From positions 1-44,177 of the forward strand of contig CAYUWM010000006.1 of the NCBI GenBank assembly GCA_964448395.1: 44,177 bases of DNA. The letters are read 5' to 3'. Both the position numbers and the translations under genes were made by a program. Each line of letters begins with the position of its first letter. The stretch's first letter is position 1. Below are positions 9,791-40,456 of this stretch, one piece after another. The stretch comes from an uncultured Dehalococcoidales bacterium. Lineage in GTDB: Bacteria > Chloroflexota > Dehalococcoidia > E44-bin15. The notes under the pieces were generated by a model that ran no database searches, was not told the origin of the DNA, and worked only from the letters and a program-made list of their open reading frames with translations.

Positions 9791-10612
9791 TTACTGGCTT
9801 TCCTGGTCCCCTTTTAAGAAACCCAAGACCTCTCTATTGAACCGTCCGCTCATCTCCACGAAAAACGCGTGCGAGCCTCCCTCGAACTTCACCAGCCTAG
9901 CACCGATAATCCTGTCCGCCAAAGTCTCGGAAGAGGTGAACGGTATTATCCTGTCGCCGGTCCCAACTATCACCAGTGTGGGGGCCTTGATATCACGCAA
10001 ACGATCCAACGTGCTATGAGAGTTGGCCGCTCTGAGCTGTCCTTTGATCCCACCGACCCCAATATACCTGAGAAAAACCTTGAAAATGGGAACTATACAG
10101 AGCTGGAACAATCTCCTGTTGAAAGCCAGGGAGGTTACCGCGCCCATTACCTGCTGCAGATCCTTATTTGCCAATGCTTCAAGATCTTCTGCGGAAGCAC
10201 CCGCCTCCAAACCCATCTCCCGCACTACACTGTCATTGATATTCCCCGTATCAGCGGTGGTACATACCAGCACAAGCTTATCGACCCTCTCCGGGTAGTT
10301 GATGGCCAACTCCTGAGCAATCATCCCGCCCAAAGAGGTCCCTACTATATGTGCCTTATCGATTCCCAGGTGATCCATCAGGCCGATTGTATCATCCGCC
10401 ATTGTCCTTACAGTATATGGCTCATTAGGTTTGCTGCTCTTCCCCACACCCCTGTTATCGAAAATGACCACCCTGTAGTGCTTCCTGAAAGCGTTTAGCT
10501 GGAAGAACCACCCTGACCCCGGGCCACCAAGACCCATTATGAAAACCAGTGGCTCCCCCTTGCCGTGTACTTCGTAATATATATTGACTCCGTTTACCTT
10601 TGTTCTAGGCAT
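9791..10612 (-). CDS. Alpha/beta-fold hydrolase (enol-lactonase/esterase-like)
   Basis: GTSLGG nucleophile elbow, 'FDNRGVG', Asp in 'GTGDRI', His in 'GSHAF'. Start moved to the ATG at 10612, which follows an AGGAG RBS. Confidence 0.88.
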   Translation of the reverse strand: MPRTKVNGVNIYYEVHGKGEPLVFIMGLGGPGSGWFFQLNAFRKHYRVVIFDNRGVGKSSKPNEPYTVRTMADDTIGLMDHLGIDKAHIVGTSLGGMIAQELAINYPERVDKLVLVCTTADTGNINDSVVREMGLEAGASAEDLEALANKDLQQVMGAVTSLAFNRRLFQLCIVPIFKVFLRYIGVGGIKGQLRAANSHSTLDRLRDIKAPTLVIVGTGDRIIPFTSSETLADRIIGARLVKFEGGSHAFFVEMSGRFNREVLGFLKGDQESQ

Positions 10613-10731
10613 TACGCCACTCCTTACTGCTAAATTACACAATACTGAGGCTACTTTAACCACGCGACAGCAGTAATGTCAATAGCATAAAGTAATATCG
10701 ATACCTGCCCCATATACGCCGCAGGAGCACC

Positions 10732-10760
10732 TTGACAGCATCTCTAGGATATAGTAAACT
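10732..10760 (+). promoter_or_regulatory. Sigma70-type promoter for the methyltransferase operon leader
   Basis: TTGACA (10732-10737), 17-nt spacer, TAAACT (10755-10760). Confidence 0.65.
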
Positions 10761-10939
10761 CTATAGAGTAGGTATGTAACATGTGATGATTTGCCATTGA
10801 GGTGTCTGGATCCGTATTGAGAATCACCCCCCACGAAGAATTAAACTCCACTCCCCTTCACTTTAAAACCTCAAATAGCCCCCGGCACTGGCCCCCTGTT
10901 TCCCCCAGAATCACCCTCCGTAAACTTACCTCCTAAGCT

Positions 10940-11187
10940 AGCCACATTCCTACTGTGGCTCCGAGAGAGAACGGAATCTCGTGGGTGAAAGCCCCATGAG
11001 ACCGGCGAGAACGGCGTCTTAGAGGGCGTTGAAGGATGACGGCGGATTCGGGTTGCCTGAGGCAAATGGTGCAGCGACTCATCTGGTGAACGCTGAACCT
11101 TCTTTGACCGACGGCGAGAACAAGAAAACAAGCAATGCTAAATGAATACCGTGCCCCGGAACGAAGGTGCCTCGACAGGTCCTTTTT
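10940..11187 (+). ncRNA. Putative structured RNA resembling group IIC intron domain I, without domain V or an RT ORF
   Basis: Hairpins AGCCACA/TGTGGCT, CTCGTGGGT-GAAA-GCCCCATGAG and TTGCC-TGA-GGCAA. Ordered motifs GGGTGAAAGCCCC, CCGGCGAG, TTAG, GAAGGA, GGCGG, CCTGAGG, AAAACAA, AATAC, CGGAACG and CGACAGG match my recollection of IIC intron domain I. Confidence 0.5.
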
Positions 11188-11233
11188 CAGGCTATGGTAT
11201 GCATTGCGGGCTGGTCAGGCAGGGGGATAGATC

Positions 11234-11917
11234 ATGGTTGATTCTATGAAGGATTTCAAAATAGAGCTCGATGAGAAGAGCGTATACCGCATCCTCGGCT
11301 ATTCCAATGGACACAAGCCAAAATCTTCTATCCGCTCGCTGGTGGACACGGAGATGGCACAGGCCTACGATCTCATCCACCCGTCATGTTCCTACCAGAT
11401 AATGGATATCAAGCGAATACGCCGACCCAGAGTCAACCTGGTTAACGGAACAAATATAACCCTCACCAGCGAGGTTCTGAGCTGGGGGCTACATCACTGC
11501 GAGCAGGCGGTCATATTCGTAGCCAGCATCGGACAGGCACTGGAGGCAAGGGTAACGCAACTGATGGCTGATGGTCAGAGCGGGAAGGCAGTCATACTCG
11601 ATGCCATAGGCTCCGAAGCCACAGAGAAAACGGTATGCTATCTCCAAGACCAGATCCGAGAGGTCGCCAAATTTGATGACGGAGAATCCACGCTGCGTTA
11701 CAGCCCCGGCTATTGCGATTGGGACATCACCCAGCAGAAGGTACTGTTTAAAGCAATGGACTCTATCCCCACGCAGGTGAGCCTCAGCGACGAGTGTGTC
11801 ATGACGCCCCGTAAGTCCGTCTCCGGCATCATCGGACTGGGGTGGAGCGAGAAGCCCCGCCTCAGGCTTTCACCGTGCCGATTCTGCACCCGACAGGATT
11901 GTAAAAACAGGAGGTAG
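11234..11917 (+). CDS. MetH reactivation-domain-like protein of corrinoid methyltransferase operons, with a C-terminal Cys cluster
   Basis: 'ILDAIGSEA.E', 'RYSPGYCDW', 'CVMTPRKSVSGIIG', C-terminal 'PCRFCTRQDCKNRR'. Confidence 0.8.
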   Translation: MVDSMKDFKIELDEKSVYRILGYSNGHKPKSSIRSLVDTEMAQAYDLIHPSCSYQIMDIKRIRRPRVNLVNGTNITLTSEVLSWGLHHCEQAVIFVASIGQALEARVTQLMADGQSGKAVILDAIGSEATEKTVCYLQDQIREVAKFDDGESTLRYSPGYCDWDITQQKVLFKAMDSIPTQVSLSDECVMTPRKSVSGIIGLGWSEKPRLRLSPCRFCTRQDCKNRR

Positions 11918-11918
11918 T

Positions 11919-13352
11919 TTGGTCAGAAAAGGTCTGGAAGGCGGTAGATATAAACCGCTATCAGAAGAAGATATCAGCCGTATCCACGAAACTGCGATGA
12001 GGGTTTTCGAGGAGGTGGGGGTCCAGGTCAACTCCGAGAAGGCCTTAAACTATTTCCGGGATGCCGGAGCCAAGATCGATGACCACGTCGTAAAGCTGCC
12101 TCGGGAGACGGTGATGGGTCTCATCAGCAGGGCGCCGTCCGAGATCACCCTTTACGGTCGCGATCCAAAGCATAATCTGCATCTTGGTGATGCCAGGGTC
12201 TACGCCGGCACGGGCGGCACCGCCCTCAACATCATCGACGGCGTCTCCGGCGAGAGGCGTCGCGCCACACTCCAAGACCTGAAAAACATCGCCAAACTGG
12301 TCGACAGCCTGGGAAACATCCACTTCTTCCTTTTGCCGACTTACCCCGATGACGTCCCGACAGATATAGTGGATGTCAACCGTTTCTTTGCCGGCCTGGA
12401 CAACACCTCCAAGCACATTATGGGCGGGGTCTACACCCGTGAGGGGCTCCAGGATGTGCTCCGCATGGCACAGATTGTCGCCGGCTCGGCAGATGAACTG
12501 CAGCGGCACCCCGTAATTTCACTTATATTATGTGCCATCAGCCCGCTGATGATAGATAGCGCCTATGGCGACATGATAATCGCCGTGGCCCAGGCCGGCA
12601 TCCCCGTAGCCCTTCCCGCAGAACCCCTGTGCGGCTCTACCTCCCCGGTAACCCTCGCCGGTAACACTGTCATCCAAACCGTAGATTCGCTGGCAGAGGT
12701 ATGCCTCACCCAACTGGTTAACCCCGGCACACCGGCGATATTTGGCTCCGTAGCTTCCAGCAACGACTTCCGCGATCTAAAATACATCACCGGATGCATC
12801 GAGATGGGGCTGCTCAACACCGCCAGCGCCCAGATGGCCCAGCTCTACAAGCTGCCATTCTATGCCACCGCCGGCATGTCCGACTCCAAGGTGGTCGATG
12901 CCCAGTGCGGCTACGAATCTGCCCTATCCCTTCTGCTGTGCGCCCTGGGTGGGGCAAACTACATCCATGATGCTGCCGGGTTGATGGACTTCGCCCTCAG
13001 CGTGAGCCTGGAGAAGTACGTGACCGACAATGAGATCATCGGCATGGTGATGCGGGCGGTGGAGGGGATAAAGGTAAACGATGATACTCTGGCCTTCGAC
13101 CTGATTAAAGATGCCGGCCCCGCGGGGCACTTCATCTACGCCAGGCATACCCGCAAGCACATCCGCAGCGAGCACTACCAGCCCGCCCTCAGCGACAGGG
13201 ACCATTTCAGCGACTGGCAGGCTAAGGGCAAGCCAGACACCGCCGCCAGGGCAAAGGCCAGGGCTGAAAAGATACTTTCCGAACCCGGATATCGGCTGCC
13301 GGAGGATACACGCCGGCAAATAATCGCCGAGATACCGGGGATAATAGATTGA
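11919..13352 (+). CDS. Non-pyrrolysine trimethylamine methyltransferase family (MttB/COG5598) protein 1
   Basis: 'IHETAMRVFEEVGV', 'GSTSPVTLAG', 'AGMSDSKVVDAQCGYE', 'IHDAAG', 'GPAGHF'. No in-frame TAG. TTG start. Confidence 0.9.
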   Translation: MVRKGLEGGRYKPLSEEDISRIHETAMRVFEEVGVQVNSEKALNYFRDAGAKIDDHVVKLPRETVMGLISRAPSEITLYGRDPKHNLHLGDARVYAGTGGTALNIIDGVSGERRRATLQDLKNIAKLVDSLGNIHFFLLPTYPDDVPTDIVDVNRFFAGLDNTSKHIMGGVYTREGLQDVLRMAQIVAGSADELQRHPVISLILCAISPLMIDSAYGDMIIAVAQAGIPVALPAEPLCGSTSPVTLAGNTVIQTVDSLAEVCLTQLVNPGTPAIFGSVASSNDFRDLKYITGCIEMGLLNTASAQMAQLYKLPFYATAGMSDSKVVDAQCGYESALSLLLCALGGANYIHDAAGLMDFALSVSLEKYVTDNEIIGMVMRAVEGIKVNDDTLAFDLIKDAGPAGHFIYARHTRKHIRSEHYQPALSDRDHFSDWQAKGKPDTAARAKARAEKILSEPGYRLPEDTRRQIIAEIPGIID

Positions 13353-13359
13353 GGTTATC

Positions 13360-14166
13360 ATGCTGATCATCGGGGAGAAGATAAACGCCACCAGCAAACG
13401 TGTGGCTGAGGCTATAATTAACAAGGATGCCTCCTTCCTTCAGGGGCTGGCCCAGCGACAGGTGGAGGCCGGTGCCGACTACATCGACGTGAATACGGGC
13501 ACCGGGCAGGGTAGGGATCAGGAGATAACCGACCTCAAGTGGGCGATAGATGTGGTGCGACAAGCCGTCGACGCACCGCTATGCCTCGACAGCTCCGATC
13601 CCCAGGCATTAGCAGCGGCAACGGCACATTATACGGGGTCCGAGCTGATAATCAACTCGGTGAACGCGGAGAAGGACAGACTGGATCCCATCGGCCGGGC
13701 GGCGGCCGAGCGCGGGGCGGGAGTGATAGCCCTGGTCATGGGGGAAGGGGGCATACCCCGCACGGTCGATGAGCGGGTTGCCGCCGCCGACCTTATTATG
13801 AATCACTTGAAACAGCTCGGCGTGAAAGAGGAGCAGGTCTATTTCGATCCCCTGGTGCTTCCCATCTCCGTAGACACCGAGCAGGGGCTGGTAACGCTCC
13901 AGACCATTGAGCAGATCAAGTCGCGGTACCCGTCGGCCAAGACTGTGGTCGGGCTGAGCAACATCTCTTACGGGCTGCCCCAGAGGGGCATAATCAACCG
14001 CGCCTTCCTGCTGATGGCGGCCGCGGTAGGGCTGGACGCCGCGATAATGGACCCCACCGATATGCGGATGATGAGCATGGTCCGGGTCTCCGATATGCTC
14101 ATCGGGAAAGACCCGGCATGCAAAGGCTTTATCAAGGCACATCGTAAGGGTATGCTACCTGAGTAA
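13360..14166 (+). CDS. Methyltetrahydrofolate:corrinoid methyltransferase (AcsE / MetH pterin-binding domain)
   Basis: 'IIGEKIN', 'GADYIDVN', 'PLCLDS', 'INSVNAE', 'YFDPLVLP', 'GLSNISYGLP'. Confidence 0.92.
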   Translation: MLIIGEKINATSKRVAEAIINKDASFLQGLAQRQVEAGADYIDVNTGTGQGRDQEITDLKWAIDVVRQAVDAPLCLDSSDPQALAAATAHYTGSELIINSVNAEKDRLDPIGRAAAERGAGVIALVMGEGGIPRTVDERVAAADLIMNHLKQLGVKEEQVYFDPLVLPISVDTEQGLVTLQTIEQIKSRYPSAKTVVGLSNISYGLPQRGIINRAFLLMAAAVGLDAAIMDPTDMRMMSMVRVSDMLIGKDPACKGFIKAHRKGMLPE

Positions 14167-14190
14167 GAGCTAACGATAGCGAGGTATGAA

Positions 14191-15723
14191 TTGGCTAGAG
14201 AAGGTATATTAATACAGAATCCCCTTACCCGGTTGAACCGGGAACAGGTAGAGAGAATCCACCGGGCTTCAATGGACATATTACTCGACCCCGGACTGCT
14301 AAGCTTCAACAAAGAGGCTGCCGAGATATTCGGCAGCAACGGCGCAGATGTCACGCCGATCACCCCCAGCGATCACCCCTGCTGGCGGGTGAAGATGCCG
14401 CAGAAGCTGGTGATGGACGCCATCGACAGCGCGCCCAAGACTGTGAAGCTGGGGGCGAGGAACCCGGACAACACGCTGATCTTGAAAGGCGACGAGCCGA
14501 GGGTGCATTTCATAACCGGGTCGGAGACCAATATCTGGCTCGACGTCGACTTCCCAACCTACGTGAAGAAAGACGATCACAATATCGAGATCCAGTTGCC
14601 GCAGTTCAAACCCAGACGAGGAACGCTTGCCGACCTGTGCGACTCGGCGCACGTTTGTGAGCACCTCCAGACGGTGGACGGGTATATCCGCACCGTGAAT
14701 ATACAGGACAAGGACATCACCGAGGAAAACAAGGACGTCAATAAATTCTTCGCCTCACTGAACCACAATACCAAGCACTTCATGTCGGGACTGACCAGCC
14801 TGAGCCAGCTGGACAACGTGGTTAAGATGGCCCGGATAATCGCTGGGGGCGAGGAAAAGTTGAAGGAGAACCCGATCATCTCTTTCATAACCTGCCTGGT
14901 CAAGAGCCCCCTCCAGTTCGTCGAGGATACCACCGACACCTTCATGGAGGTATGCAAACGGGGGCTTCCCATTGTGGTCTCATCCTCGCCCCAGGCGGGG
15001 AGCACCGCCCCCATCAAGGAAGCCGGCATCATGGCCCAGATAAATGCCGAAGTGCTGGCCGGCATCACCCTCGGCCAGCTGGTGAACCGGGGAGCCCCGG
15101 TGATATACGGCAGCGTTCCGGTCAGGGCGCGCATGGACACCCTCGGCGATTCATACGGTGCCGTCGAGACCAGCCAGTACAATGTGGACTGCGCGCAGAT
15201 GGCCCGGTTCTATAGCATGCCCAACTATTCCACATCGGGTGTTTGCGATACCAAGGTACCGGGGCAGCAGGCCTCGATCGAGAGGTTGTTCTCAGACATA
15301 CTGGTCACCTTGAGCGGGCCCCAGTACCTGCACTGCGCGTTCGGCCTCCTCGACTGCAACTCCGTCTTCTGCCTGCTCCAGGCCGTCATCGACGACGCCC
15401 ACTTCCAGATGATCAAATTCTTCCTCAGGCAGCCGCGGATCGACGAAACCGAGATTTCCACCACCCTGAAGCAGATAAGAGAGGTGGTGCAGACACCGCA
15501 AAAGCTGTATATCAGCTACATCCGCAAGGTTATGCGCAGCGGGGAGCTCTCCCCGTCCTATCCTTTCGAGGGGGGAAGCGAGGGCGACGACGTGTTCCGG
15601 CTGGCATACGAAAAAATGAACGAGCTGCTCGCCAAGCCGGTGGAGCATATAGATAAGAATACCATCGCCAGGATATTCAGTGAAATACCCGGCATACTGC
15701 CGAGGCTGAACGTTTACGGATAA
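14191..15723 (+). CDS. Non-pyrrolysine MttB-family methyltransferase 2 (divergent)
   Basis: 'IHRASMDIL', 'AGSTAPI', 'AEVLAGITLGQLVNRGAPVIYG', 'SGVCDTK'. No amber codon. TTG start. Confidence 0.85.
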   Translation: MAREGILIQNPLTRLNREQVERIHRASMDILLDPGLLSFNKEAAEIFGSNGADVTPITPSDHPCWRVKMPQKLVMDAIDSAPKTVKLGARNPDNTLILKGDEPRVHFITGSETNIWLDVDFPTYVKKDDHNIEIQLPQFKPRRGTLADLCDSAHVCEHLQTVDGYIRTVNIQDKDITEENKDVNKFFASLNHNTKHFMSGLTSLSQLDNVVKMARIIAGGEEKLKENPIISFITCLVKSPLQFVEDTTDTFMEVCKRGLPIVVSSSPQAGSTAPIKEAGIMAQINAEVLAGITLGQLVNRGAPVIYGSVPVRARMDTLGDSYGAVETSQYNVDCAQMARFYSMPNYSTSGVCDTKVPGQQASIERLFSDILVTLSGPQYLHCAFGLLDCNSVFCLLQAVIDDAHFQMIKFFLRQPRIDETEISTTLKQIREVVQTPQKLYISYIRKVMRSGELSPSYPFEGGSEGDDVFRLAYEKMNELLAKPVEHIDKNTIARIFSEIPGILPRLNVYG

Positions 15724-15731
15724 GGGAGGGC

Positions 15732-16421
15732 ATGATGAGTGAAGATATTATCGCCGCACTCAAAGAGAACGTCATACAGGGGCGAAAGACCGCGGAAGAC
15801 GAAGGGATAGACGAGGACCTGACCGGTCCCGGTGTATTGGAGCTCACGCAGCAGGCGATAGACAGCAAGATACCGCCGGACAGGATAATCAAAGAGGGGT
15901 TGACCGCCGGTATGCAGGTGGTGGGGGAGAAGTTCTCGACCAAGGAGTATTTCATCCCCGACATGCTGGCCTCCGCCGATGCGGTAGGCGCAGCCATGGA
16001 TATCCTCAAGCCGCTACTCGAGTCGGCAAACGTCGAGACCAAGGGGAAATTCGCCATAGCCACGGTGCAAGGGGATATCCACGATATCGGCAAAAACATC
16101 GTCGCTATTCTTCTCAAAGGCGCCGGATACGAAGTGAGCGACCTGGGCATAGACGTGCCCGCTGAGAAAATAGTGGAGTACGTGAAGAACGAGAACCCCG
16201 ATTACCTGGGGCTCTCCGCCCTGCTGACCACCACCATGGTGGCGATGGGGCAGGTCATCGAAGCCCTGAAGGCCGCCGGCCTGAGGGACAAGGTCAAGGT
16301 GCTCATCGGCGGTGCGGCGGTATCCGAAGATTTTGCCCGCGAGATCGGGGTGGACGCATACTGCCTGGACGGTTTCGAGGCGGTCAAGGTGCTGGATGCG
16401 TTCCGAGAAGGTAAAATTTAG
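15732..16421 (+). CDS. Cognate corrinoid (B12-binding) protein, MttC/MtgC-like
   Basis: DxHxxG in 'QGDIHDIGKNIV', 'LGLSALLTTTM', 'LIGGAAV'. Confidence 0.95.
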   Translation: MMSEDIIAALKENVIQGRKTAEDEGIDEDLTGPGVLELTQQAIDSKIPPDRIIKEGLTAGMQVVGEKFSTKEYFIPDMLASADAVGAAMDILKPLLESANVETKGKFAIATVQGDIHDIGKNIVAILLKGAGYEVSDLGIDVPAEKIVEYVKNENPDYLGLSALLTTTMVAMGQVIEALKAAGLRDKVKVLIGGAAVSEDFAREIGVDAYCLDGFEAVKVLDAFREGKI

Positions 16422-16455
16422 GATATGACAACATTCGATTAAGGAGGTCTTGAGC

Positions 16456-17937
16456 ATGGCTGGAATTGCTGGAATTCTGGGTGCAGACAACGGACAGTTA
16501 GACCAGATGCTGGAGAGGACCAAGCACCGCGGTCCTCACGGTACATGGACCAACCGTGATGGACAAGTATCCATAGGATGCAACGAGCTGAACGTAGGTG
16601 CCGACTGCAAGGACGATTCGCATCACGCTTCCGACGGCAAGATAGCGGTGGTCATCGACGGACGCGTATACAACGACGATAAGGGTGAAAAAACCGATGC
16701 CGAGGCTCTACTGGACCTGTACAAAAAATACGGCACCAATTTTGCCAAGAAGCTGGATGGTGATTTCGCCTGCGCCGTATCCGACAATGGAAAGGTGACA
16801 CTGGCGCGCGACTGGGCCGGTGTAAAACCGATCTACTACGGCCACAACAACGGGAGTCTGTACTTTGCATCGGAGGCAAAGGCACTGGTGGGCATTGCGG
16901 AGGATGTAAAGGAGTTCCCACCGGGCTATGTTTATTCACGCGAACTGGGCTTCCAGCGGTTCTCCCTCGACGAGAATGAGACACCCGAATTCGAGAGCTT
17001 CGAACAGGCTAAGAAGGTGGTGAAACAACTGCTCATCGAGGCCACCGAGAAGCGGATGAAGGACAACTCGGTTAAGGGCGTGCTGCTCAGCGGCGGCCTG
17101 GACTCCAGCCTGATAACCTACATGGCAGCCCAGATAAAGCCGGATATAGAATGTTACACCGTAAGCATGGAGCAAGGCCAGGATCTGCCTCTGGCAAAGG
17201 ACGTTACTGAATACCTTGGGCTAAAGCACCATATCCTGATGTTCAGCGAGAAGGAGATAAACGAGATACTGCCACTGGCCATCCACCACCAGGAGATGTA
17301 CGAGGAAAGCTGCGTGCACGGCGCCATCGCCAATTTCATAGCGGGTCGATTCGTCAGCCCCATGGCCAAGTGCGTGTTCACCGGTGAAGGTGCGGATGAG
17401 TTATTCGATGGTTACGACGGACAATATAAAAAAGGCAACAATCCCGAAGAGGTAGCCGGTATCTGCGACAACCTGATAAACGTGGCCCACAATACAGCCT
17501 TGCAGCGGCTCGACAGGTTAAACGCCGCCAATGCCTATGAAAGCCGCACCCCGTTCCTCGACAACAGGGTGATGGGATTCAGCCTCAAGATACCGCTGGA
17601 GCACAAGATCCACGGCGAGGAGCAGACCGGCAAGTGGGTGGTGCGCAAGGCCTTCGAGGGCTGCCTGCCCGAACACATAATATTCCAGACCAAGCGTTTC
17701 TTCGCCCAGGGCTCGGGGGTGGCCTACATCATGCGGCAGCAGGCTGAGAAGCATATTACAGAGGCCGAGCTGGCAGAGTTCAACCGAACCGAGGGCAACC
17801 CCCATCTCGAATCGGTGGAGGAGCTGTACTACTACCGGATATTCAAAGAGACGCTTCCCGGCCCTCAATACGATCGGCTGGTGGGCAGATGGGACCCCCT
17901 GAGGCCGGATTTCTTCCTGAGGCAGGCGGGGGTATAG
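16456..17937 (+). CDS. Asparagine synthetase B-like ATP-dependent amide ligase lacking glutaminase catalytic residues
   Basis: PP-loop 'LLSGGLDSSL', 'GEGADELF.GY' and 'RTPFLD' intact. N-terminus is MAGIAG instead of MCGI, and 'DGRVYN' replaces NGEIYN. ATG at 16456 lies 8 nt after AAGGAGG. Confidence 0.88.
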   Translation: MAGIAGILGADNGQLDQMLERTKHRGPHGTWTNRDGQVSIGCNELNVGADCKDDSHHASDGKIAVVIDGRVYNDDKGEKTDAEALLDLYKKYGTNFAKKLDGDFACAVSDNGKVTLARDWAGVKPIYYGHNNGSLYFASEAKALVGIAEDVKEFPPGYVYSRELGFQRFSLDENETPEFESFEQAKKVVKQLLIEATEKRMKDNSVKGVLLSGGLDSSLITYMAAQIKPDIECYTVSMEQGQDLPLAKDVTEYLGLKHHILMFSEKEINEILPLAIHHQEMYEESCVHGAIANFIAGRFVSPMAKCVFTGEGADELFDGYDGQYKKGNNPEEVAGICDNLINVAHNTALQRLDRLNAANAYESRTPFLDNRVMGFSLKIPLEHKIHGEEQTGKWVVRKAFEGCLPEHIIFQTKRFFAQGSGVAYIMRQQAEKHITEAELAEFNRTEGNPHLESVEELYYYRIFKETLPGPQYDRLVGRWDPLRPDFFLRQAGV

Positions 17938-18182: not shown

Positions 18183-21100
18183 ATGGCAAATAAGGGCCAA
18201 AAAACAAAACAATCAAGTCCGCAAAGCGGCGAGGATAGGTTCAGGGAGCTGCTTGAATCACTGCCCCAGATGGTGTGTGAGACGGATCTGGAGGGGAACC
18301 TGACGTTCGCCAATAAGGTGGCCTTCGACACCTTCGGTTACAGCCAGCGGGATTTCGAACTTGGTATCAATATCTTCGATATGGTTTCCCCTGAGGACAG
18401 AGACGTGGCCATGGATAACCTGCTGAGGATAATCGCCGGTGAAAAGCTGGGCGCCGACGAATGCATGGCCCAGCGGAAAGATGGCACCAAGTTCCCGATC
18501 ATAGTTCAGGGAAGCCGTATTGTCAATGCTAAAGGTAAAGCCTCCGGATTCAGGTCATTTGTCATAGATATAAGTGAGCGAAAAAAAACAGAAGAGGCTC
18601 TCCGCGACTCGGAAGAGAAACTGCGCACCGTTTTTGAATCCATGGCAGACGCTATCGTCATCACCGATATGGAACTTAAAGTTATCGATGTAAATGAGGC
18701 TGCACTACGCATGGGGGGCTATAGTTCAAAGGAAGAACTCATAGGCATAAATGGACTTGACTTCATCTCTCCCAAAAACAGAATAAACGCGATCGAATCA
18801 TTCGGCAAGGCACTGGAATCGAGTCGCCCTGAAGAACGGCTGGAATACGCACTACTTCATAAGTCCGGCAGGGAACTGAACGTCGAATTAAGCATAGCGA
18901 TGCTGCACGACAGTTCCGGGAACCCAGCCGGATTCATCGCCATCGCCCGGGACGTTTTTGAGCGCAAGCGAACGGAGTCAGCGCTGAGGGAAAGCGAGGC
19001 CATGTTCAGAGAACTGTTTGAGAACATGAGCAGCGGCGTAGCCGTATATGAGCCTATAGATTCAGGTAAGCACTTCGTTTTCAAAGACCTCAACAGCGCA
19101 GGCGAGATGATCTCTAACGTAAAGAAGGATGAGCTTATCGGCAAAACCATTCACGAGGCCTTCCCTAACCTGAAACAATCGGGGCTGATTGACTCAGTAC
19201 GAAGGGTCTGGGAAACGGGAGAGCCGGAGCATGTACCGCCGATATATAACAAAGACGAACGCCGCTCCGGATGGAGAGAGAATAACATATATAAACTTCC
19301 TTCCGGCGATGTCGTTGCCGTCTATGACGATGTCACCGAGCGCATGGAGGCAGAGGAAGCGCTGCGGGAGTCGGAGGAAAAGTTCCGCCTGGTATTCGAA
19401 TCTATAGAAGATCTGCTCCTCGTCATGGATCTTGAGGGTATAATCGTAGAAGTTAACGAGGCAACACTTCATATATTCGGATACAGAAGTAAGGATGAAC
19501 TCATAGGCAGAAACAGCGCCGAATTGGTGGCAACGAAGGACCGTGGTAGAGTCATAAAAAATGCACTAAAAATTATAGAACAGGGCTCAGCCAGAGGGAT
19601 ATCAGAGTACCACGTCGTAACGCTTATAGCCGCAGATGGCCATGAATTCGAAGTTGAGTTCAGCATCGCTCTAGAGCGTGATGCCTCAGGTCAGGTTGTG
19701 GGCATCATCGGCATTGCTCACGACATCACCGAGCGCAAGCGCATGGAGGAAGCGCTGCGTGAGAGCGAAGAGAAACTCAGTGTCATGTTCTCATCCATCG
19801 AAGATGGAATCGTGGTCGTCGATCTGGCAGGTAATATCGTCGATGTGAACCGGGCAACGCTTCGCTTGCACGGTTATAGCAGCAGAGATGAGCTTATCAG
19901 TCGAAACAGCCTGGACCTCATCGCCGAGGATTCCCGAGCGGGGGCAATTGAGACTATGATGAAAGCGCTGGGGGAGAAACGGGGTGCCACACTGGAGTAC
20001 ACGCTGCTGAAAAAGGACGGGGGCAAGGCGGATGGCGAGGGTAGCGTCAATCTTTTTAGTGACAGCTCCGGGAATCCGCTCGGCATCGTTGTAGTGACCA
20101 GGGAGATCACTGCGCGCAAGCGAATAGAGCGAGCGCTGCGCGAATCTGAAGAGCGTTATCGCTCGGTGATAGAGAATGCAAACGATGCTATAGTTGTAGC
20201 CCAAGACGGTTTCCTCAGATTCTTTAACCCCAAGGCGATGGAGATCATGGGCTACTCACGGGATGAGCTTTCGTCCACACCCTTCCTCGATGTTATACAC
20301 CCCGACGACCGGCAGATGGTAGCCGACCGTCATCTGCGCCGACTCGCGGGTGAAGAGCTGCCCTCGGTATACGCCTTCCGCATCATTGACAAACGAGGCA
20401 ATATAAAATGGCTGGAGATCAACTCGGTGGTGATACAGTGGGAAGAGAAACCTGCTACCCTAAACTTCCTGAGCGATATCACCGAACGCAAGTCAGCGGA
20501 ACGGGTCCTCCAGAAACGCAATCGGGAACTCACCGCTATAAACGCTATAGCGCAGTCGCTGACTCAATATACCAGATTGAACAAGGTTCTTCAGACTGCG
20601 CTTTACAGCACCCTTGAGGTCACCGGCTTGCTCACTGGAGGCATATGGCTCCTCGATGAAGGCAAGGGTAAACTGGTACTTGCCATTCACAGGGGATTTG
20701 GCAGGAGATTCGAACGGGCTATGGTCAGAATGCCCATGGAAATAGGCGTCGCCGGTAAGGTGATGGCCATATCCGATATCCACGCAAACAAAGAGCTGCA
20801 TCCTAAGTACAAAGAGACAGCCCGCCTGGATGGCTTGCAATCCGCCATCAGCATTCCCCTTAAGTCAAAAGGTAAGACACTGGGAGTAATAAATTTATTC
20901 AGTCACAACCGCCGAGATTTCCCCGCTGAGGATATCCAATTGCTGGAGACAATAGGTGGCGAGATAGGTGTTGCCATCGAAAATGCTAAACTGCTCGAAA
21001 AGCTGAGTGAGCAATCCGAAACTGATGAACTGACCGGGCTGTATAACCGCCGCCATTTCTACGATACCCTCGATAACGAGACCTACAGTACATGGCGCTC

Positions 21101-22115
21101 CGGACGCTCTTTCTCCTTGGCCATACTCGACCTTGACGGTTTCAAGAGATACAATGACCGATTTGGCCACATCAGCGGCGATGCAGTGCTGAAGCACTTT
21201 GCCAACGCAATCAAGCTGGCTATACGCAAGAGTGATATCGCTTTCCGCTATGGCGGCGACGAGTTTGCTGTGATACTGCCATCAACCAGCGCCGATAGGG
21301 CTAAAAAGATTATCGAACGAATTAGAGATAAGTGGCCTAAAATTGCACAGGAACAGTATCCCGTTTTAGAAAACCCTATAAGGTTCAGCGCCGGAATAGC
21401 CCAGTTTCCCGACGATTCGGAAACGTCAGATGGCCTGGTTTTCCTGGCAGATACCTCCCTGTTTACCGCCAAAAGAGGCAAAGGCTACAAAACCACAATG
21501 GCATCCGAGCTCGGTGAACTCCCTATAGATGCCCGGGGCCCGGCAACGCTCGATCAGGTTTACGCCCTGGCATCCACCGTTGATGCCAGATCCCCCTACA
21601 CGTCCGGCCATTCTAACAGGGTCGCCACCGTAGCATCGGTGATAGGCAGGGCTATCGGGCTGTCTCCGGAGGAAATGGAACAGCTAACGACAGCCTCTTT
21701 GCTACATGACATCGGGAAGCTAGGCGTTCCCGACTTAATACTCAGGAAGCCTGAAACACTCACCAGAGACGAGCGTCGCGTAATAGAGAAACACGCTGCA
21801 GAAGGGGCTAAAATCCTCAGTCACGTGAGCGAGCTGACAGCACTGGCCCCCATAGTGCGGCATCACCATGAATGGTATAACGGAGAGGGCTATCCGGAAA
21901 GGCTGAAGGGTGAGGACATACCGCTGCTTTCCCGGATCATCACCGTGGCCGACTCGTACGACACCATGGTCACCCCACTGCCGCACCGGCAGGCTATGAC
22001 CCACGAAGATGCGCTGGACGAATTGAGGCGGTACGCGGGTGTACAGTTCGATCCCGATCTGGTAGAGTCATTCGCCGAAAGCGCCAGCGACGGCATTCCT
22101 CAGGCAGAAACCTGA
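18183..22115 (+). CDS. Multi-PAS + GAF + GGDEF diguanylate cyclase + HD-GYP phosphodiesterase
   Basis: Repeated PAS/PAC units ending in 'DI(T/S)ERKxxExALRxSE', a GAF domain, RKSD I-site with GGDEF, 'LLHDIGK' and 'GEGYP'. Confidence 0.93.
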   Translation: MANKGQKTKQSSPQSGEDRFRELLESLPQMVCETDLEGNLTFANKVAFDTFGYSQRDFELGINIFDMVSPEDRDVAMDNLLRIIAGEKLGADECMAQRKDGTKFPIIVQGSRIVNAKGKASGFRSFVIDISERKKTEEALRDSEEKLRTVFESMADAIVITDMELKVIDVNEAALRMGGYSSKEELIGINGLDFISPKNRINAIESFGKALESSRPEERLEYALLHKSGRELNVELSIAMLHDSSGNPAGFIAIARDVFERKRTESALRESEAMFRELFENMSSGVAVYEPIDSGKHFVFKDLNSAGEMISNVKKDELIGKTIHEAFPNLKQSGLIDSVRRVWETGEPEHVPPIYNKDERRSGWRENNIYKLPSGDVVAVYDDVTERMEAEEALRESEEKFRLVFESIEDLLLVMDLEGIIVEVNEATLHIFGYRSKDELIGRNSAELVATKDRGRVIKNALKIIEQGSARGISEYHVVTLIAADGHEFEVEFSIALERDASGQVVGIIGIAHDITERKRMEEALRESEEKLSVMFSSIEDGIVVVDLAGNIVDVNRATLRLHGYSSRDELISRNSLDLIAEDSRAGAIETMMKALGEKRGATLEYTLLKKDGGKADGEGSVNLFSDSSGNPLGIVVVTREITARKRIERALRESEERYRSVIENANDAIVVAQDGFLRFFNPKAMEIMGYSRDELSSTPFLDVIHPDDRQMVADRHLRRLAGEELPSVYAFRIIDKRGNIKWLEINSVVIQWEEKPATLNFLSDITERKSAERVLQKRNRELTAINAIAQSLTQYTRLNKVLQTALYSTLEVTGLLTGGIWLLDEGKGKLVLAIHRGFGRRFERAMVRMPMEIGVAGKVMAISDIHANKELHPKYKETARLDGLQSAISIPLKSKGKTLGVINLFSHNRRDFPAEDIQLLETIGGEIGVAIENAKLLEKLSEQSETDELTGLYNRRHFYDTLDNETYSTWRSGRSFSLAILDLDGFKRYNDRFGHISGDAVLKHFANAIKLAIRKSDIAFRYGGDEFAVILPSTSADRAKKIIERIRDKWPKIAQEQYPVLENPIRFSAGIAQFPDDSETSDGLVFLADTSLFTAKRGKGYKTTMASELGELPIDARGPATLDQVYALASTVDARSPYTSGHSNRVATVASVIGRAIGLSPEEMEQLTTASLLHDIGKLGVPDLILRKPETLTRDERRVIEKHAAEGAKILSHVSELTALAPIVRHHHEWYNGEGYPERLKGEDIPLLSRIITVADSYDTMVTPLPHRQAMTHEDALDELRRYAGVQFDPDLVESFAESASDGIPQAET

Positions 22116-24719: not shown

Positions 24720-24779
24720 GCGTCTACCTATGGATTTCTATACCGAGCGGTTCGAACCTTTACCTGAGTCAACCCCGAT

Positions 24780-24822
24780 TGAGACTAAAGTCGCATACAT
24801 CACGATTGAACACCGTTAGAAT
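24780..24822 (+). promoter_or_regulatory. Crp/Fnr box 1 with a class II promoter
   Basis: TGAGA-CTAAAG-TCGCA (24780-24795) and -10 TAGAAT (24817-24822). Box centre at about -41.5. Confidence 0.75.
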
Positions 24823-31843: not shown

Positions 31844-32515
31844 ATGACGGTTCAGATAGAGACGCTGCAGTCCATCCCCTACTTCCACGGAATCAGCTTA
31901 GAAGACCTTAACACGATCAAGGATTCATTCTTCGAGAAGACAGCGGAAAGGGGAGAGCTGATACTGGCAGAGGAAGAGCCCTCCAATGTGCTGTACTTCA
32001 TTACCTCCGGCGCAGTGAAACTATTCAAGACATCGGCTGACGGGAAAGAGCAGATACTCGATATCGCCCGACCGGGCCAGTCGATAAACGATGTCCCCGT
32101 TTTCGACGGCAACCCGAACCTTACCAGCGCTCAGGCGATGGGGCCGGTAATACTGTACGGGGTCGACAAGGCAGCTTTAGATAGAATCCTGCAGCTATAC
32201 CCCAGGGTGGCCCAAAACGCCAACAAAGTTCTAGCCGGACAGGTGCGCCGCCTTACCTCGCTGGTCGAGGACCTTTCCTTCAAGCCGGTTATCGGCAGGG
32301 TGGCCAAGATACTATTAGAGAACAGTGAAGAGAACCCCGACTCCCACCCTAAGCTCACCCAGCAGGATATGGCGGCCATGGCCGGCACCGCCCGCGAGGT
32401 GGTCGGCAGGTCGCTCAAGGCCCTTGAAGAAGAAGGATTGATCAGGCTGGAGCGACACCGCCTGGTGATCAGCGACAAGGAAGCGCTTAAAGATATGGTG
32501 GCGGCATTTTCTTAA
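31844..32515 (+). CDS. Crp/Fnr family transcriptional regulator containing no Cys
   Basis: cNMP-type domain plus HTH 'LTQQDMAAMAGTAREVVGRSL'. Extended -10 TGtTATAAT near 31794-31802. Confidence 0.93.
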   Translation: MTVQIETLQSIPYFHGISLEDLNTIKDSFFEKTAERGELILAEEEPSNVLYFITSGAVKLFKTSADGKEQILDIARPGQSINDVPVFDGNPNLTSAQAMGPVILYGVDKAALDRILQLYPRVAQNANKVLAGQVRRLTSLVEDLSFKPVIGRVAKILLENSEENPDSHPKLTQQDMAAMAGTAREVVGRSLKALEEEGLIRLERHRLVISDKEALKDMVAAFS

Positions 32516-32521
32516 GCTTGT

Positions 32522-32565
32522 TGAGACAAACGTCACACACATCGATTGAAAGCCAATTATATGAT
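32522..32565 (+). promoter_or_regulatory. Crp/Fnr box 2 with a class II promoter
   Basis: TGAGA-CAAACG-TCACA (32522-32537) and -10 TATGAT (32560-32565). Confidence 0.75.
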
Positions 32566-32801: not shown

Positions 32802-32828
32802 TGCTTCCTGCCTTCACCCGATCTCTAT

Positions 32829-32871
32829 TGAGACAAAAGTCGCATACAATGACCCACTATCACCCTAGAAT
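32829..32871 (+). promoter_or_regulatory. Crp/Fnr box 3 with a class II promoter
   Basis: TGAGA-CAAAAG-TCGCA (32829-32844) and -10 TAGAAT (32866-32871). Confidence 0.78.
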
Positions 32872-33617: not shown

Positions 33618-33710
33618 CCAGGTTAAACTTACACGCCTGGACTCGCCCAACTCACGACACCTAACCCCCAAACGTCTGTTTATCTTATTCAATCCATAGC
33701 TATCTACGCA

Positions 33711-33753
33711 TGGGATAAAAGTCACATACAATTTCGCTTCCTTAGCATACAAT
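33711..33753 (+). promoter_or_regulatory. Crp/Fnr box 4 with a class II promoter
   Basis: TGGGA-TAAAAG-TCACA (33711-33726) and -10 TACAAT (33748-33753). Confidence 0.72.
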
Positions 33754-35523: not shown

Positions 35524-37260
35524 CTACCCCTTGAAGCGATTGGTGATCGGCAGTCTGCGATCCTTACCGAAAGCCCGAGGGGTAATTTTTATCCCCGGCG
35601 GCGCCTGCCGGCGCTTGTACTCGCTGATGTCCACCAGCCGCGCAGCCCGCTGCACCACCCCTTCATCGAAACCCAGGGCGATGATCTGCTCCACGCTCTT
35701 GTCCTCCTCGACATACGCCATCACTATCGGGTCGAGCAAATCATAGGGAGGAAGGGAATCGGTGTCCTTCTGATCGGGCCTGAGCTCCGCCGACGGGGGC
35801 TTCTCGATGATAGCGGCCGGTATAATCTCGCTTTGCGACACCGAGTTACGATAACGGGATAGTTCATATACCAGCGTCTTCGGCACGTCCTTGATAACGG
35901 CGAAGCCGCCCGCCATATCCCCATAGAGTGTAGAATAGCCGGTGGCCAGCTCACTCTTGTTGCCGGTGGTCAGCACCAGCCAGCCGAACTTATTGGACAG
36001 TGCCATCAGTATGTTGCTCCTGATACGAGCCTGTAGGTTTTCCTCAGCCACGTTGGGCTCGGTCACTTCAAACAAAGGGGCGAGGTACTCCAGGTAGTCC
36101 TTAAAAATCCTCTCGATAGGGAGCTGGATAAATCGTATCCCCAGATTCTGAGCCAGCAGTTCGGAGTCGGTCACGCTGCCCTCTGATGAATACCTCGATG
36201 GCATGGTTACACCTACAACATTCTGTGTGCCCAAGGCATCAACCGCCACCGCAGCCACCAGGCTGGAGTCAAGGCCTCCGGATAGCCCTATCAGCACCTT
36301 CTCGAAACCGTTCTTCCTTACATAGTCCCGCGTGCCGAGCACCAGCGCATCGTACACCTCCGCCGGCAGGTCACGCACCTTTACCGCCCGTTCGGGCAGT
36401 GGTGGCTTGGCAGCCTTCGATGGCTCACTGGAAACGGTGACCACCTTGGTCCACCAACCCTTAGCTTCATCCGTCAACGGTCCCCGGTTCCACCGCTTGT
36501 TCCGGCTGCGCAGCTCTGCTACCGCGTCTACATCCACGTCAGCCAGTACCATGTCCTCAGCGAACTGCTCACCGCGGGCTATCAACCCACCTTCAGGGCC
36601 GACGATCACGCCGCCGCCGTCAAACACCAGCTCGTCCTGCCCACCGACCATATTGTTGTAGGCCACGAAGGCGGCATTGTCCCTCGCGCGCTTGCTGACC
36701 ATCAGCTCACGCCAGCCGCGCTTGCCCTTGTGGTACGGTGACGCGCTTATATCTATCAGTACCTCAGCGCCGGAGCGCGCCTGCACGGTGAACGGCCCGG
36801 TATCGAACCACATGTCCTCGCAGATATTGACGCCGACATTGACGCCGCCGATAACGAACACCGGGCATTCGACGCCTGCTCTGAAGTACCGCTTCTCATC
36901 GAAGACACCGTAGTTGGGCAGGTATATCTTGTGGTAGACGCCGGCAAGCTTACCGTCATGGATCACCGCCGCCGCATTATAGATGTCATTCTGTTTGTGA
37001 TCGACGAACCCGAGAATGACGGTTAGCCCCGGTGAAGCTTTCACCATCCGCTCCATACACCTCAGGTTCTCCTTGATGAACCGCGGCTTGAACAGCAGGT
37101 CTTCCGGGGGGTATCCACAAGTAGCCAGTTCAGGGAAGGTGAGAAGGTCAACCCCCATCAATCTGGCCTGTGAGACTGCCTCCCGCATCTTCTCGGCGTT
37201 GCCCTCGAAGTCGCCTACGGTGGTGTTGATCTGGGCCATGCCGATCCGCAGCCTGCGCAT
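35524..37260 (-). CDS. nadE: Glutamine-dependent NAD+ synthetase
   Basis: Nitrilase domain (FPEL, KIYLPNY, ICED) plus 'GLSGGLDS', 'NLQARIR', 'TGNKSE', 'PPSAELRP'. Confidence 0.96.
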   Translation of the reverse strand: MRRLRIGMAQINTTVGDFEGNAEKMREAVSQARLMGVDLLTFPELATCGYPPEDLLFKPRFIKENLRCMERMVKASPGLTVILGFVDHKQNDIYNAAAVIHDGKLAGVYHKIYLPNYGVFDEKRYFRAGVECPVFVIGGVNVGVNICEDMWFDTGPFTVQARSGAEVLIDISASPYHKGKRGWRELMVSKRARDNAAFVAYNNMVGGQDELVFDGGGVIVGPEGGLIARGEQFAEDMVLADVDVDAVAELRSRNKRWNRGPLTDEAKGWWTKVVTVSSEPSKAAKPPLPERAVKVRDLPAEVYDALVLGTRDYVRKNGFEKVLIGLSGGLDSSLVAAVAVDALGTQNVVGVTMPSRYSSEGSVTDSELLAQNLGIRFIQLPIERIFKDYLEYLAPLFEVTEPNVAEENLQARIRSNILMALSNKFGWLVLTTGNKSELATGYSTLYGDMAGGFAVIKDVPKTLVYELSRYRNSVSQSEIIPAAIIEKPPSAELRPDQKDTDSLPPYDLLDPIVMAYVEEDKSVEQIIALGFDEGVVQRAARLVDISEYKRRQAPPGIKITPRAFGKDRRLPITNRFKG

Positions 37261-37299
37261 GCTAACTCCTCAATCCGGCTAGCGTATATAATAATCGCT

Positions 37300-38640
37300 T
37301 CAAAGGATCGGCAAGTACCGCTTGAGCTCATAGTCGGTAACCTGGGTGCGGTACAGATCCCATTCGATCTTCTTGTTCTCTATAAAGGTGTGAAAGACGT
37401 GGTCACCCAGCGCTTTCCGCAACAGCTCGCTGCGCTCGGCGTGATGTATCGCTTCAGAGAGGTTCCCCGGCAGGGTCTCTATCCCCCTGCGATTCCGCTC
37501 CTCCTCGGTCATTTTGAAGGCATTCTCCTCAAGCGGAGGGGGCAGCTCGTATTTCTTATCGATGCCCTCGAGCCCGGCGGCCAGCATCACCGCGAACGCA
37601 AGATACGGGTTGCATGCCGGATCGGGAGAGCGATACTCCACGCGGGTAGCGTACTCCTTACCCGGCTTGTATTCCGGAATGCGGATTAGGTCGGAGCGGT
37701 TCCTGCATGCCCAGGATACGTATACCGGGGCTTCGTATCCCGGGATAAGCCTCTTATAGGAGTTGACCCACTGGCTGGTGACAGCAGTGATCTCCACCGC
37801 ATGTTTGAGCAACCCCGCGATATAGTGCTTCGCTTCCTTGGACAAATTGTTCTCATCTCCCTTATCGAAGAACGCGTTGCGCTTGCCCCTGAACAACGAC
37901 TGATGCACGTGCATCCCGTTTCCATTTACCGCCGCTATCGGCTTGGGCATGAAAGTAGCGTAGTATCCGAATTTCTGGGCGATCTGCTTGACCGCCAAAC
38001 GATAGGTCATCACATTATCAGCCATAATAAGGGCCTCGTTATACTTCAGGTCGATCTCGTGCTGGCTGGGCGCGACCTCGTGGTGCGCCACCTCCACCTT
38101 AACGCCCATCTTCTCCAGAGCGAGGATCGCCTCACGACGCATATCGGTGGCTACCTCTACCGGTGTTATATCGAAATAGCCCACCTGGTCCAGCGCCTGA
38201 GGATCATCCGAACTTTTGAAATAGAAGAACTCCAGTTCGGGCCCCACATACATGGTGTATCCCATATCGGCAGCGCGTTTCAGATTCCTTTTAAGCACAT
38301 AGCGGGGATCTCCCTCAAACGGCTCTCCCCCCGGCCTCATCACATCGCAGAACATCCTGGCTACAGCCTGCTCCTGCGGCCGCCATGGGATGATGCAGAA
38401 GGTGTCGGGGTCTGGCATGGCCAGCATATCACTCTCGTCAATACGGGCAAAACCCTCTATCGAGGAGCCGTCGAAACCTATACCTTCCTCAAGGGCCATT
38501 TCCAGTTCCTCTACCGTGATGGCCACACTCTTCAGGAAACCCAGTATATCGGTGAACCACAGGCGTACGAACTTCACCCCCTGCTCTTTGGACATCCTCA
38601 GGACGTGTTCTTTGGCTTCTCTCCTTTGTTTATCTGCCAT
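37300..38640 (-). CDS. glnA: Glutamine synthetase type I
   Basis: 'FDGSSIEGF', 'GPELEF', 'HHEVAPSQHEI', 'FMPKP', 'GNGMHVHQS', 'RVEYRSPDP'. Confidence 0.97.
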   Translation of the reverse strand: MADKQRREAKEHVLRMSKEQGVKFVRLWFTDILGFLKSVAITVEELEMALEEGIGFDGSSIEGFARIDESDMLAMPDPDTFCIIPWRPQEQAVARMFCDVMRPGGEPFEGDPRYVLKRNLKRAADMGYTMYVGPELEFFYFKSSDDPQALDQVGYFDITPVEVATDMRREAILALEKMGVKVEVAHHEVAPSQHEIDLKYNEALIMADNVMTYRLAVKQIAQKFGYYATFMPKPIAAVNGNGMHVHQSLFRGKRNAFFDKGDENNLSKEAKHYIAGLLKHAVEITAVTSQWVNSYKRLIPGYEAPVYVSWACRNRSDLIRIPEYKPGKEYATRVEYRSPDPACNPYLAFAVMLAAGLEGIDKKYELPPPLEENAFKMTEEERNRRGIETLPGNLSEAIHHAERSELLRKALGDHVFHTFIENKKIEWDLYRTQVTDYELKRYLPIL

Positions 38641-38771
38641 CTAGGCCTCCTTTTACAGTATCGAGGATGGTATAACGGTAAGTAACCGACAAAATACTGG
38701 AACTGCCCCCTAGAGCACCAATTATACTGGAATTCAGCGCAAAAGCAAATATACAAAGGCCGTGATATAAG

Positions 38772-38807
38772 AACGAACGAGCTCCGATTATCAGGAGCCC
38801 GTTCGTT
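38772..38807 (-). terminator. Hairpin between the glutamate synthase gene and glnA (terminator or stabiliser)
   Basis: AACGAACG(A)GCTCC-N8-GGAGC(C)CGTTCGTT, 13 of 14 bp paired. The U-tract is weak. Confidence 0.5.
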
Positions 38808-38830
38808 TACCCGAATTGCCTTTATGCGGT

Positions 38831-40423: not shown

Positions 40424-40456
40424 ATTCAACTCCCTTCACATTATTTGAATCTTAAA

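Follow-up and report, generated by a model that had tools for sequence, protein, structure and literature searches.

Operons for B12-related functions are usually regulated in cis by the cobalamin riboswitch. Orphan riboswitch candidates of the Weinberg/Breaker type were found by comparative genomics of intergenic regions. In a further group of leaders, the Mg2+ leader of Salmonella mgtA and the flavin mononucleotide riboswitch of Escherichia coli ribB reportedly act via Rho-dependent termination. Here we analyze a noncoding region at positions 10732-11233 of a 44,177-nt stretch of DNA (the window) from an uncultured Dehalococcoidales bacterium (contig CAYUWM010000006.1). By Pfam assignment, the region separates a divergent alpha/beta-hydrolase gene (9791-10663, - strand) from a + strand operon containing MttB-family methyltransferase genes. 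The original prediction, made from the letters of the window, saw in it a stand-alone domain I of a group IIC intron, either decayed or domesticated as the structured leader of a B12 operon. We consider it reasonably likely that the region is instead a ~467-nt 5' untranslated leader of this corrinoid-dependent operon, and that ~10767-11100 within it is a conserved cis-regulatory RNA belonging to no Rfam family.

The region resembles the mgtA and ribB leaders in its long untranslated extent, its constitutive-looking promoter, its structured domain beside a C-rich, G-poor tract, and its lack of an intrinsic terminator. It differs from them in having no similarity to either in sequence or structure, in carrying the C-rich tract upstream of the folded core rather than downstream of or overlapping an aptamer, and in that both Rho dependence and a ligand are here only candidates. 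With the orphan candidates it shares a conserved intergenic element, covarying hairpins, conserved unpaired nucleotides, and association with one gene class in one lineage. Unlike them, its motif is not in Rfam 15 and its range is narrow, comprising metagenome-assembled genomes (MAGs) of Dehalococcoidia/Chloroflexota with few independent lineages. Full-text literature searches, including ones for MttB or Dehalococcoidia together with riboswitch, found no prior description of the leader. The leader is probably an uncatalogued cis-regulatory RNA, akin to riboswitch and attenuator leaders.

We assembled 55 related loci (labelled by L-numbers) from homologs of the first gene of the operon (gene 1), from their contigs, and from a DNA-pattern scan of metagenomes. 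Gene 1 had 177 homologs at E<=1e-20, with relatives originating in Dehalococcoidia/Chloroflexota MAGs, and the gene order of the operon recurs in related loci. Sensitive blastn of the leader against 17 loci with gene-1 homologs revealed a common block of ~130 nt. The metagenome scan, which was blind to gene context, returned seven copies, and the same gene followed in all six that had downstream sequence. Using nhmmer and a covariance model (R1, 127 positions), we detected the element in ~40 of the 55 loci, in every case on the + strand, with the first operon gene beginning 60-420 nt downstream. Clades left out of model building still scored 56 bits (L050-L054) and 50 bits (L055). L005 and L037 gave only marginal, syntenic matches, and with filters off the element was not found in L009-L017, where the gene-1 homolog is only 36-44% identical. 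Neither a repeat search nor the covariance model with filters off found a second copy in the window.

Every relative occupied one syntenic place, upstream of the same operon, and none lay inside an intron; all come from Dehalococcoidia/Chloroflexota contigs. The original prediction had proposed collecting homologs as a check on its own reading, and these sit upstream of orthologous operons rather than in full introns elsewhere. Core identity between the window and most other clades was 54-63%, falling to 46-49% for the most divergent loci, L001 and L007. In comparison, fourfold-degenerate sites of the adjacent gene were 25-46% identical, near saturation. Core identity well above this level indicates purifying selection on the noncoding core, and the alignments show such selection over ~330 nt of the leader.

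The leader is preceded by a sigma-70-type promoter (Table 1) that the original prediction had rated a good one. This judgement was borne out: the promoter scored 10/12 in our scan, and in the whole-leader alignment of 15 loci the -35 CTTGACA is invariant, the spacing constant, and the -10 reads TAnnnT throughout. TTGACA also lay 130-200 nt upstream of hairpin P1 in 13 of 13 loci checked. Transcription would start near 10767, and conservation of the promoter across loci makes a leader of ~467 nt from that point a fair description. Many relatives have a second conserved noncoding block of ~200 nt upstream of the shared promoter (GGCAAAGAGGCGTGA...AAGCGCTGGTGTCCGCTGAGC...TTGACATAGACCTCGG...), located at ~2340-2575 in L002, ~2270-2500 in L030 and ~770-1000 in L004, and present also in L008, L043, L007, and L001. 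It holds another TTGACA. In the window clade, the divergent hydrolase gene directly adjoins the promoter, which accounts for the lack of the block there.

Table 1. Features of the leader and of the downstream operon, in window coordinates.
Feature	Positions	Strand	Basis
Sigma-70-type promoter: -35 TTGACA 10732-10737, 17-nt spacer, -10 TAAACT 10755-10760	10732-10760	+	Scan and conservation
Conserved 5' block, contains GGUGUCUGGAUCCGUAUUGAG at 10801-10821	10790-10823	+	Aligns across clades in whole-leader alignment
C-rich, G-poor tract, 80-110 nt across loci, candidate rut-like region	10824-10935	+	Base composition
Core, ~130 nt	10936-11069	+	Two covarying hairpins, third hairpin, near-invariant segment
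Hairpin P1: AGCCAC 10940-10945 x GUGGCU 10955-10960, 9-nt loop	10940-10960	+	Covariation
Hairpin P2: UCUCGUGGG 10977-10985 x CCCAUGAGA 10993-11001, 7-nt loop	10977-11001	+	Covariation
Hairpin P3, register A: CGGCGUCU 11012-11019, loop UAGA, GGGCGUUG 11024-11031	11012-11031	+	Pairing in alignment
Hairpin P3, register B: same 5' strand x GGGACGUC-type segment	11031-11041	+	Some lineages
Near-invariant segment GGCGGAUUCGG(GU)UGCCUGAGGCAA	11041-11065	+	Best conserved part of core
Variable hairpin CAGCG 11072-11076 x CGCUG 11091-11095	11072-11095	+	Window fold; arms kept in L025, L029
Decayed start of asparagine-synthase-like (asnB-like) gene, UUUGACCGACGGCGAGAAC...	11103-~11150	+	Alignment to loci with asnB-like gene first
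Lineage-specific spacer, including T-run 11183-11187	11151-11220	+	Aligns only with L025, L029
Shine-Dalgarno AGGGGGA 11221-11227 and ATG 11234 of gene 1	11221-11236	+	Sequence
Operon of six genes	11234-17937	+	Pfam matches
Gene 1, 227 aa, B12-dependent methionine-synthase activation domain (Met_synt_B12)	11234-11917	+	Pfam
MttB-family methyltransferase (mttB)	11919-13352	+	Pfam
Pterin-binding methyltransferase	13360-14166	+	Pfam
Second MttB-family protein	14191-15723	+	Pfam
Corrinoid-binding protein	15732-16421	+	Pfam
asnB-like protein	Listed as 16450-17937; real start ATG 16456	+	Pfam

Within the core, two hairpins have covariation support. P1 is paired in 96.8% of alignment cells across 21 sequences, with two pairs changed on both sides (e.g. 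AGCCUA/UAGGCU in L007). P2 is paired in 87.3% of cells across the same number of sequences, and five of its nine pairs have changed on both sides; its loop reads UGAAAGC in the window and is AAGGCAG-like in most relatives. In L050 and L055, outside model building, eight of the nine P2 pairs are kept with largely different bases, and P1 is also kept, again with different bases. With seven pairs changed on both sides in P1 and P2 together, the leader contains the conserved, aptamer-like 5' untranslated domain expected of a riboswitch in general. The original prediction had noted several hairpins, including one with a GAAA tetraloop, and had proposed a covariation test. The hairpins stand, with covariation support in P1 and P2 against a shuffle control, but the GAAA loop is restricted to the window and L025, its closest relative.

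The third hairpin is less settled. Register A of P3 is paired in 89% of cells and holds in L050 and L055, with no double-sided changes and only one-sided G·U/G-C exchanges. Register B is paired in 78% and has six double-sided changes (e.g. UGUC/GACA in L004 and CUUC/GAAG in L008), but, as read by eye from the alignment, fails in the window clade, L050, and L055. The two registers are mutually exclusive, and neither holds across all clades. The best conserved part of the core, GGCGGAUUCGG...UGAGGCAA with its UGAGG, is almost the same in L050 and L055 despite their wholly different P2. No convincing pairing partner for the GGCGGAUUCGG segment was found. Its candidate partners (an upstream UCYGCY, a UCYG after P1, and a downstream UGCY) pair in 79-91% of cells and are mutually exclusive. 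The long-range helices UCYGCY/GGCRGA, UCYG/CRGA, UCCCAC/GUGGGA, and GGCG/UGCY were not accepted despite 79-91% pairing, because they share strands and a G/C-rich composition inflates pairing; UCYG/CRGA also overlaps the closing pair of P1. UUUCCUC/GAGGAAA, paired in only 56%, was rejected as well. Downstream of the core, other lineages show by eye a short hairpin of different sequence near the variable hairpin, in a register that cannot be aligned across clades.

RNAalifold without guidance recovered P1 and P2, and averaged pair probabilities supported these two only. The covariation score of the whole structure exceeded all 500 of 500 shuffles, and 85-90% of cells were paired, vs 35-50% when the 3' partners were slid. 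Read as + strand RNA, 430 of 475 cells were canonical (90.5%), compared with 336 of 475 (70.7%) for the - strand. G·U accounted for 105 cells of the helices and A·C for 11. This excess of G·U, together with the drop in pairing on the complement, argues that the folded molecule is a + strand RNA and not a set of DNA palindromes.

The 5' block upstream of the core aligns across clades with no supported secondary structure. One pairing of the block, CUGGAUCCG with CGGAUUCGG (9 bp in the window; partner segment 11042-11050), was rejected on inspection by eye, which revealed no covariation and uncompensated mismatches in L002, L003, L004, and L020. In the most divergent clade (L037 3100-3240, L005 560-700, L046 3100-3240), conservation is strong over the ~130 nt directly following the promoter. 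That block contains an AGGAGA motif, a near-perfect hairpin (CAUAUUCAA/UUGAAUAUG), and a possible 23-25-aa open reading frame (ORF) starting MGVGF or MGVEF. Window 10801-10821 looks homologous to it, but without its ORF.

An invariant strong promoter followed by ~330 nt of selected, untranslated, partly structured RNA points to control after initiation. We propose that the core would act as a sensor of a small molecule or protein, and that its state would decide whether transcription enters the operon. The preferred output would be Rho-dependent premature termination, in which Rho would load on the long untranslated C-rich, G-poor tract, and its access, or pausing by RNA polymerase, would be modulated by the core in its folded or bound state. 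Alternatively, the output would be control of translation initiation. Rho-dependent attenuation is favored by three properties taken together: no conserved intrinsic terminator, pairing of the C-rich tract with the Shine-Dalgarno sequence at the level of chance, and a conserved C-rich/G-poor composition. A terminator scan found no + strand intrinsic terminator in 10400-11500, as an attenuator of the intrinsic type would contain. The original prediction had remarked on the TTTTT run at 11183-11187; it is present, but not conserved, reading TTGCC already in the 87%-identical L025.

The C-rich tract is conserved across clades mainly in composition, which is rich in C, poor in G, and of necessity unstructured, as is characteristic of Rho loading sites. 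Its GC skew reaches -0.62, and the best 80-nt stretch holds 37 C and 8 G in the window and 32-42 C and 5-12 G in 13 of 13 loci. In all 13, as would befit a Rho attenuator, the tract forms an untranslated stretch of at least 70 nt upstream of the gene, with C far in excess of G and no conserved ORF. We also considered an anti-Shine-Dalgarno role, comparing duplex energies with those of composition-matched shuffles. The window alone gave a z of -2.1, but the mean over 13 loci was 0.03, and the role was rejected as a family-wide feature.

A more specific form of this model is that the core and its relatives are the aptamer of a new, Dehalococcoidia-specific riboswitch class, which would sense a substrate or product of the MttB pathway and gate the C-rich Rho tract. 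The ligand would then be either an amine, quaternary or methylated (glycine betaine, for instance), or an intermediate of one-carbon/folate metabolism, and the aptamer would expose or hide the adjacent loading tract. A genuinely new ligand-sensing class is possible, although we regard this full set of proposals as doubtful.

Several observations weigh against a conserved cis-regulatory RNA with a Rho-dependent output. The helix alignment comprises 21 sequences, but their effective number is only 3.25; as the shuffle control also ignores phylogeny, the statistics are suggestive and fall below the standard of R-scape. The whole 476-nt leader folds no better than shuffles (z = -1.37), and structure shows up locally rather than along the leader as a whole. 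Of the helices, just two are secure; P3 has competing registers, and the best conserved segment has no assigned partner. As regards an expression platform, the conserved terminator is absent and Shine-Dalgarno pairing is at chance level, as described above, and each of the mutually exclusive P3 registers fails in some clades. The C-rich tract is a candidate rut-like Rho loading site by its base composition, and a literature search on Dehalococcoides and Rho factor yielded nothing, the rho gene itself not having been searched for. Finally, everything from P2 to the variable hairpin, inclusive, is missing in L006 and L041/L042, two lineages that keep the operon, and the core is therefore dispensable there. 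This loss was not tied to operon content, as L041 lacks the pterin-binding gene and L006 keeps it. These deletion variants (L006 500-650, L041 1880-2020, and L042) retain the C-rich tract, a P1-like hairpin, and an AGCGACC linker.

Among other explanations, the one that survives best, though we consider it unlikely, is that the conserved sites are DNA-level operators downstream of the promoter, namely P1 (AGCCAC-N9-GTGGCT) and GGATCC palindromic sites, with no functional RNA structure. The P1 inverted repeat is of a size typical for operators, a repressor acting as a roadblock after a strong promoter has precedent, and some loci have Crp-family, TetR, and cNMP-binding genes nearby. No regulator gene, however, is consistently linked across loci, and ~330 conserved nt extend far beyond what operators need. 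Compensatory changes preserve pairing and not half-site sequence. The tolerance of G·U but not A·C, and the poorer pairing of the opposite strand, likewise fit RNA and not operators.

It is improbable that the leader is a known metabolite riboswitch (cobalamin, tetrahydrofolate, S-adenosylmethionine or glycine) diverged beyond detection by Rfam, even though the operon depends on B12, folate, and S-adenosylmethionine. We ran cmscan with all 4227 families of Rfam 15 on the window at gathering thresholds, and with permissive filters on 10600-11300 (701 nt) at E<=10 and on nine divergent homologous loci at E<=1. The sole match at gathering thresholds was PYLIS_3, inside mttB. The 701-nt segment gave three chance-level matches at E<=10, and no riboswitch family matched there or in the nine divergent leaders; a weak chance match in these scans was sR44 (21 bits, E = 0.68). 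The leader does resemble the cobalamin riboswitch (RF00174, and the adenosylcobalamin variant RF01689) in being a multi-helix leader of 130-200 nt. The layouts do not correspond in P1, P2, P3, and the conserved single strand, and neither model matched the leader at E<=10 or the nine homologous loci at E<=1. The GGGUGAAAGCCCC string of the window is loosely like the cobalamin GGUGAAA element, but is not conserved in relatives: it is confined to the window clade, with AAGGCAG in its place elsewhere. Similarly, GGUGAAAGCC is a superficially similar string found in the window only and not conserved in the leader family.

A similarly small chance attaches to the view that the leader is mostly evolutionary debris from relocation of the asnB-like gene, which does explain its 3' part. 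In L004, L008, L034, L006, and L041, the operon starts with a 483-485-aa asparagine-synthase-like gene, whose ribosome-binding region and first codons (MAGIAGI...) read TTTGACCAATGGCAGGAATTGCAGGAATA. This sequence aligns to CTTTGACCGACGGCGAGAAC at 11103-11121 of the window, where the former ATG is now ACG (11111-11113) and similarity fades by ~11150. In L018 (1160-1345), a clean in-frame internal deletion has fused the first ~21 codons of the gene to its last ~39 as a 60-aa ORF, located between the leader and gene 1. More of the decayed N-terminal part survives in L030 and L001; in the window and L023, the operon ends with an intact asnB-like gene. From these alignments, the arrangement with this gene first is older than the loci with remnants, and the gene was deleted or relocated more than once. 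The last ~130 nt of the region (11103-11233) lie, by the same comparison, outside the sensor, consisting of the remnant and an unconserved spacer.

The remainder of the leader is not explained in this way. In asnB-first loci the leader element remains ahead of the asnB-like gene, and core and C-rich tract upstream of its start mark a leader rather than gene debris. The core is also far better conserved than synonymous sites, with covariation. The debris explanation is therefore refuted for 10767-11100 and holds for 11103-11220. The leader also keeps its 5' position in operons with rearranged gene order. The position of the asnB-like gene, first or last, differs by lineage.

We also think it very unlikely that the region harbors, on either strand, an unannotated gene for a small protein or an independent one for a small RNA. 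Open frames exist, with 44 aa on the + strand (10802-10936, GTG start) and 86-93 aa on the - strand, as does the possible short ORF after the AGGAGA motif in the L037 clade. The + strand frame, the only one on that strand of the leader, meets a stop after 13 codons in the closest relatives, L025 and L029. On both strands, the longest open stretch differs in frame and length among loci, long - strand frames are expected from the G-rich complement of a C-rich tract, and 1- and 2-nt indels are scattered through the core among relatives. No conserved ORF was found in the leader, coding potential was rejected on either strand, and no terminator separates the element from the operon. The original prediction was thus right that no credible ORF precedes 11234.

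The weakest explanation, a decayed or domesticated domain I of a group IIC intron, is effectively refuted, as its likeness to group IIC domain I (Rfam group-II-D1D4; Intron_gpII, RF00029) consists of short strings in an order that the original prediction ascribed to that domain, whereas the leader is fixed at one syntenic site within an mRNA leader and matches no group II model. The strings on which this explanation was built are all present, with GGGTGAAAGCCCC at 10983, CCGGCGAG at 11002, GAAGGA at 11031, GGCGG at 11041, CCTGAGG at 11056, AAAACAA at 11125, AATAC at 11145, CGGAACG at 11157, and CGACAGG at 11173. The last four (11125-11173) fall in the asnB-like remnant or the unconserved spacer. 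The search against Rfam that the original prediction had called for gave no group II match in the window at gathering thresholds, in the leader at E<=10, or in the nine homologous loci at E<=1. Intron_gpII (domain V/VI) was likewise absent from all 44 kb at the former setting and from the leader at E<=10. GTGYG (GTG[CT]G) was not found in 10732-11233, nor was a reverse-transcriptase domain among 30 large window ORFs scanned with Pfam, consistent with the prediction's own remark that GUGYG, domain V, and reverse transcriptase were missing. Its fallback, a structured leader regulating a B12 operon, stands in outline, with no match to a known riboswitch, covariation present, and homologs syntenic; the qualifier "domesticated" does not, as no sign of intron descent was seen.

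Additional observations concern the operon and its surroundings. The PYLIS_3 match inside mttB (12876-12975) scored 42.5 bits, above the gathering score, and PYLIS_3 also matched in L001, L002, L004, L007, L037, L043, L050, and L055 at 39-51 bits. The window mttB ORF has no in-frame TAG, and the UAG of the model aligns to an in-frame ATG at codon 320. The match is probably coding-sequence homology in a non-pyrrolysine MttB and not a working PYLIS. The asnB-like protein starts MAGIAGI in the window (16456-17937), in L004 (1433-2890), and in others. The Cys nucleophile found at the N terminus of class II glutamine amidotransferases is missing, and the protein is therefore probably not a glutamine-dependent asparagine synthase. 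The operon is followed by a 1310-aa signaling protein with the architecture PAS x5-GAF-GGDEF-HD(-GYP) (18183-22115). In L048/L049 (4633-7753), a homologous PAS protein directly follows a 250-aa gene-1 homolog, with neither mttB genes nor the leader element.

Further downstream, a 22-nt repeat (ATTGAGACAAAAGTCGCATACA) occurs in four copies at 24778-24799, 32520-32541, 32827-32848, and 33709-33730, and includes the near-palindrome TGAGAC-N4-GTCGCA. A Crp/Fnr-family regulator gene (31844-32515) has three of the copies within ~1.2 kb on its downstream side and the fourth ~7 kb upstream; the repeats are plausibly operators of this regulator. A nitrogen-assimilation cluster (35524-41458, - strand) contains an NrpR-type repressor homolog (40457-41458) that adjoins a glutamate-synthase-domain protein, glutamine synthetase (37300-38640), and a glutamine-dependent NAD synthase. 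NrpR is known best in methanogenic archaea. Finally, 43039-43503 and 43969-44025 hold a long, imperfect repeat of period 6 nt, in 23 overlapping copies, inside or adjoining a dockerin-domain ORF (42376-43497, - strand), and would encode a low-complexity repeat protein.

Most non-pyrrolysine MttB-family methyltransferases have no known substrate, and this type of operon is widespread in assemblies of uncultured Dehalococcoidia/Chloroflexota. Because the molecule bound by the leader is likely to be a substrate, product or cofactor of the pathway, the cis-regulatory RNA would offer an experimental handle on it. The leader would also be among the few regulatory RNAs described for this phylum. In addition, the locus documents survival of a leader through operon rearrangement: several relocations or deletions of the first gene have left datable remnants, with the leader keeping its place at the 5' end throughout.

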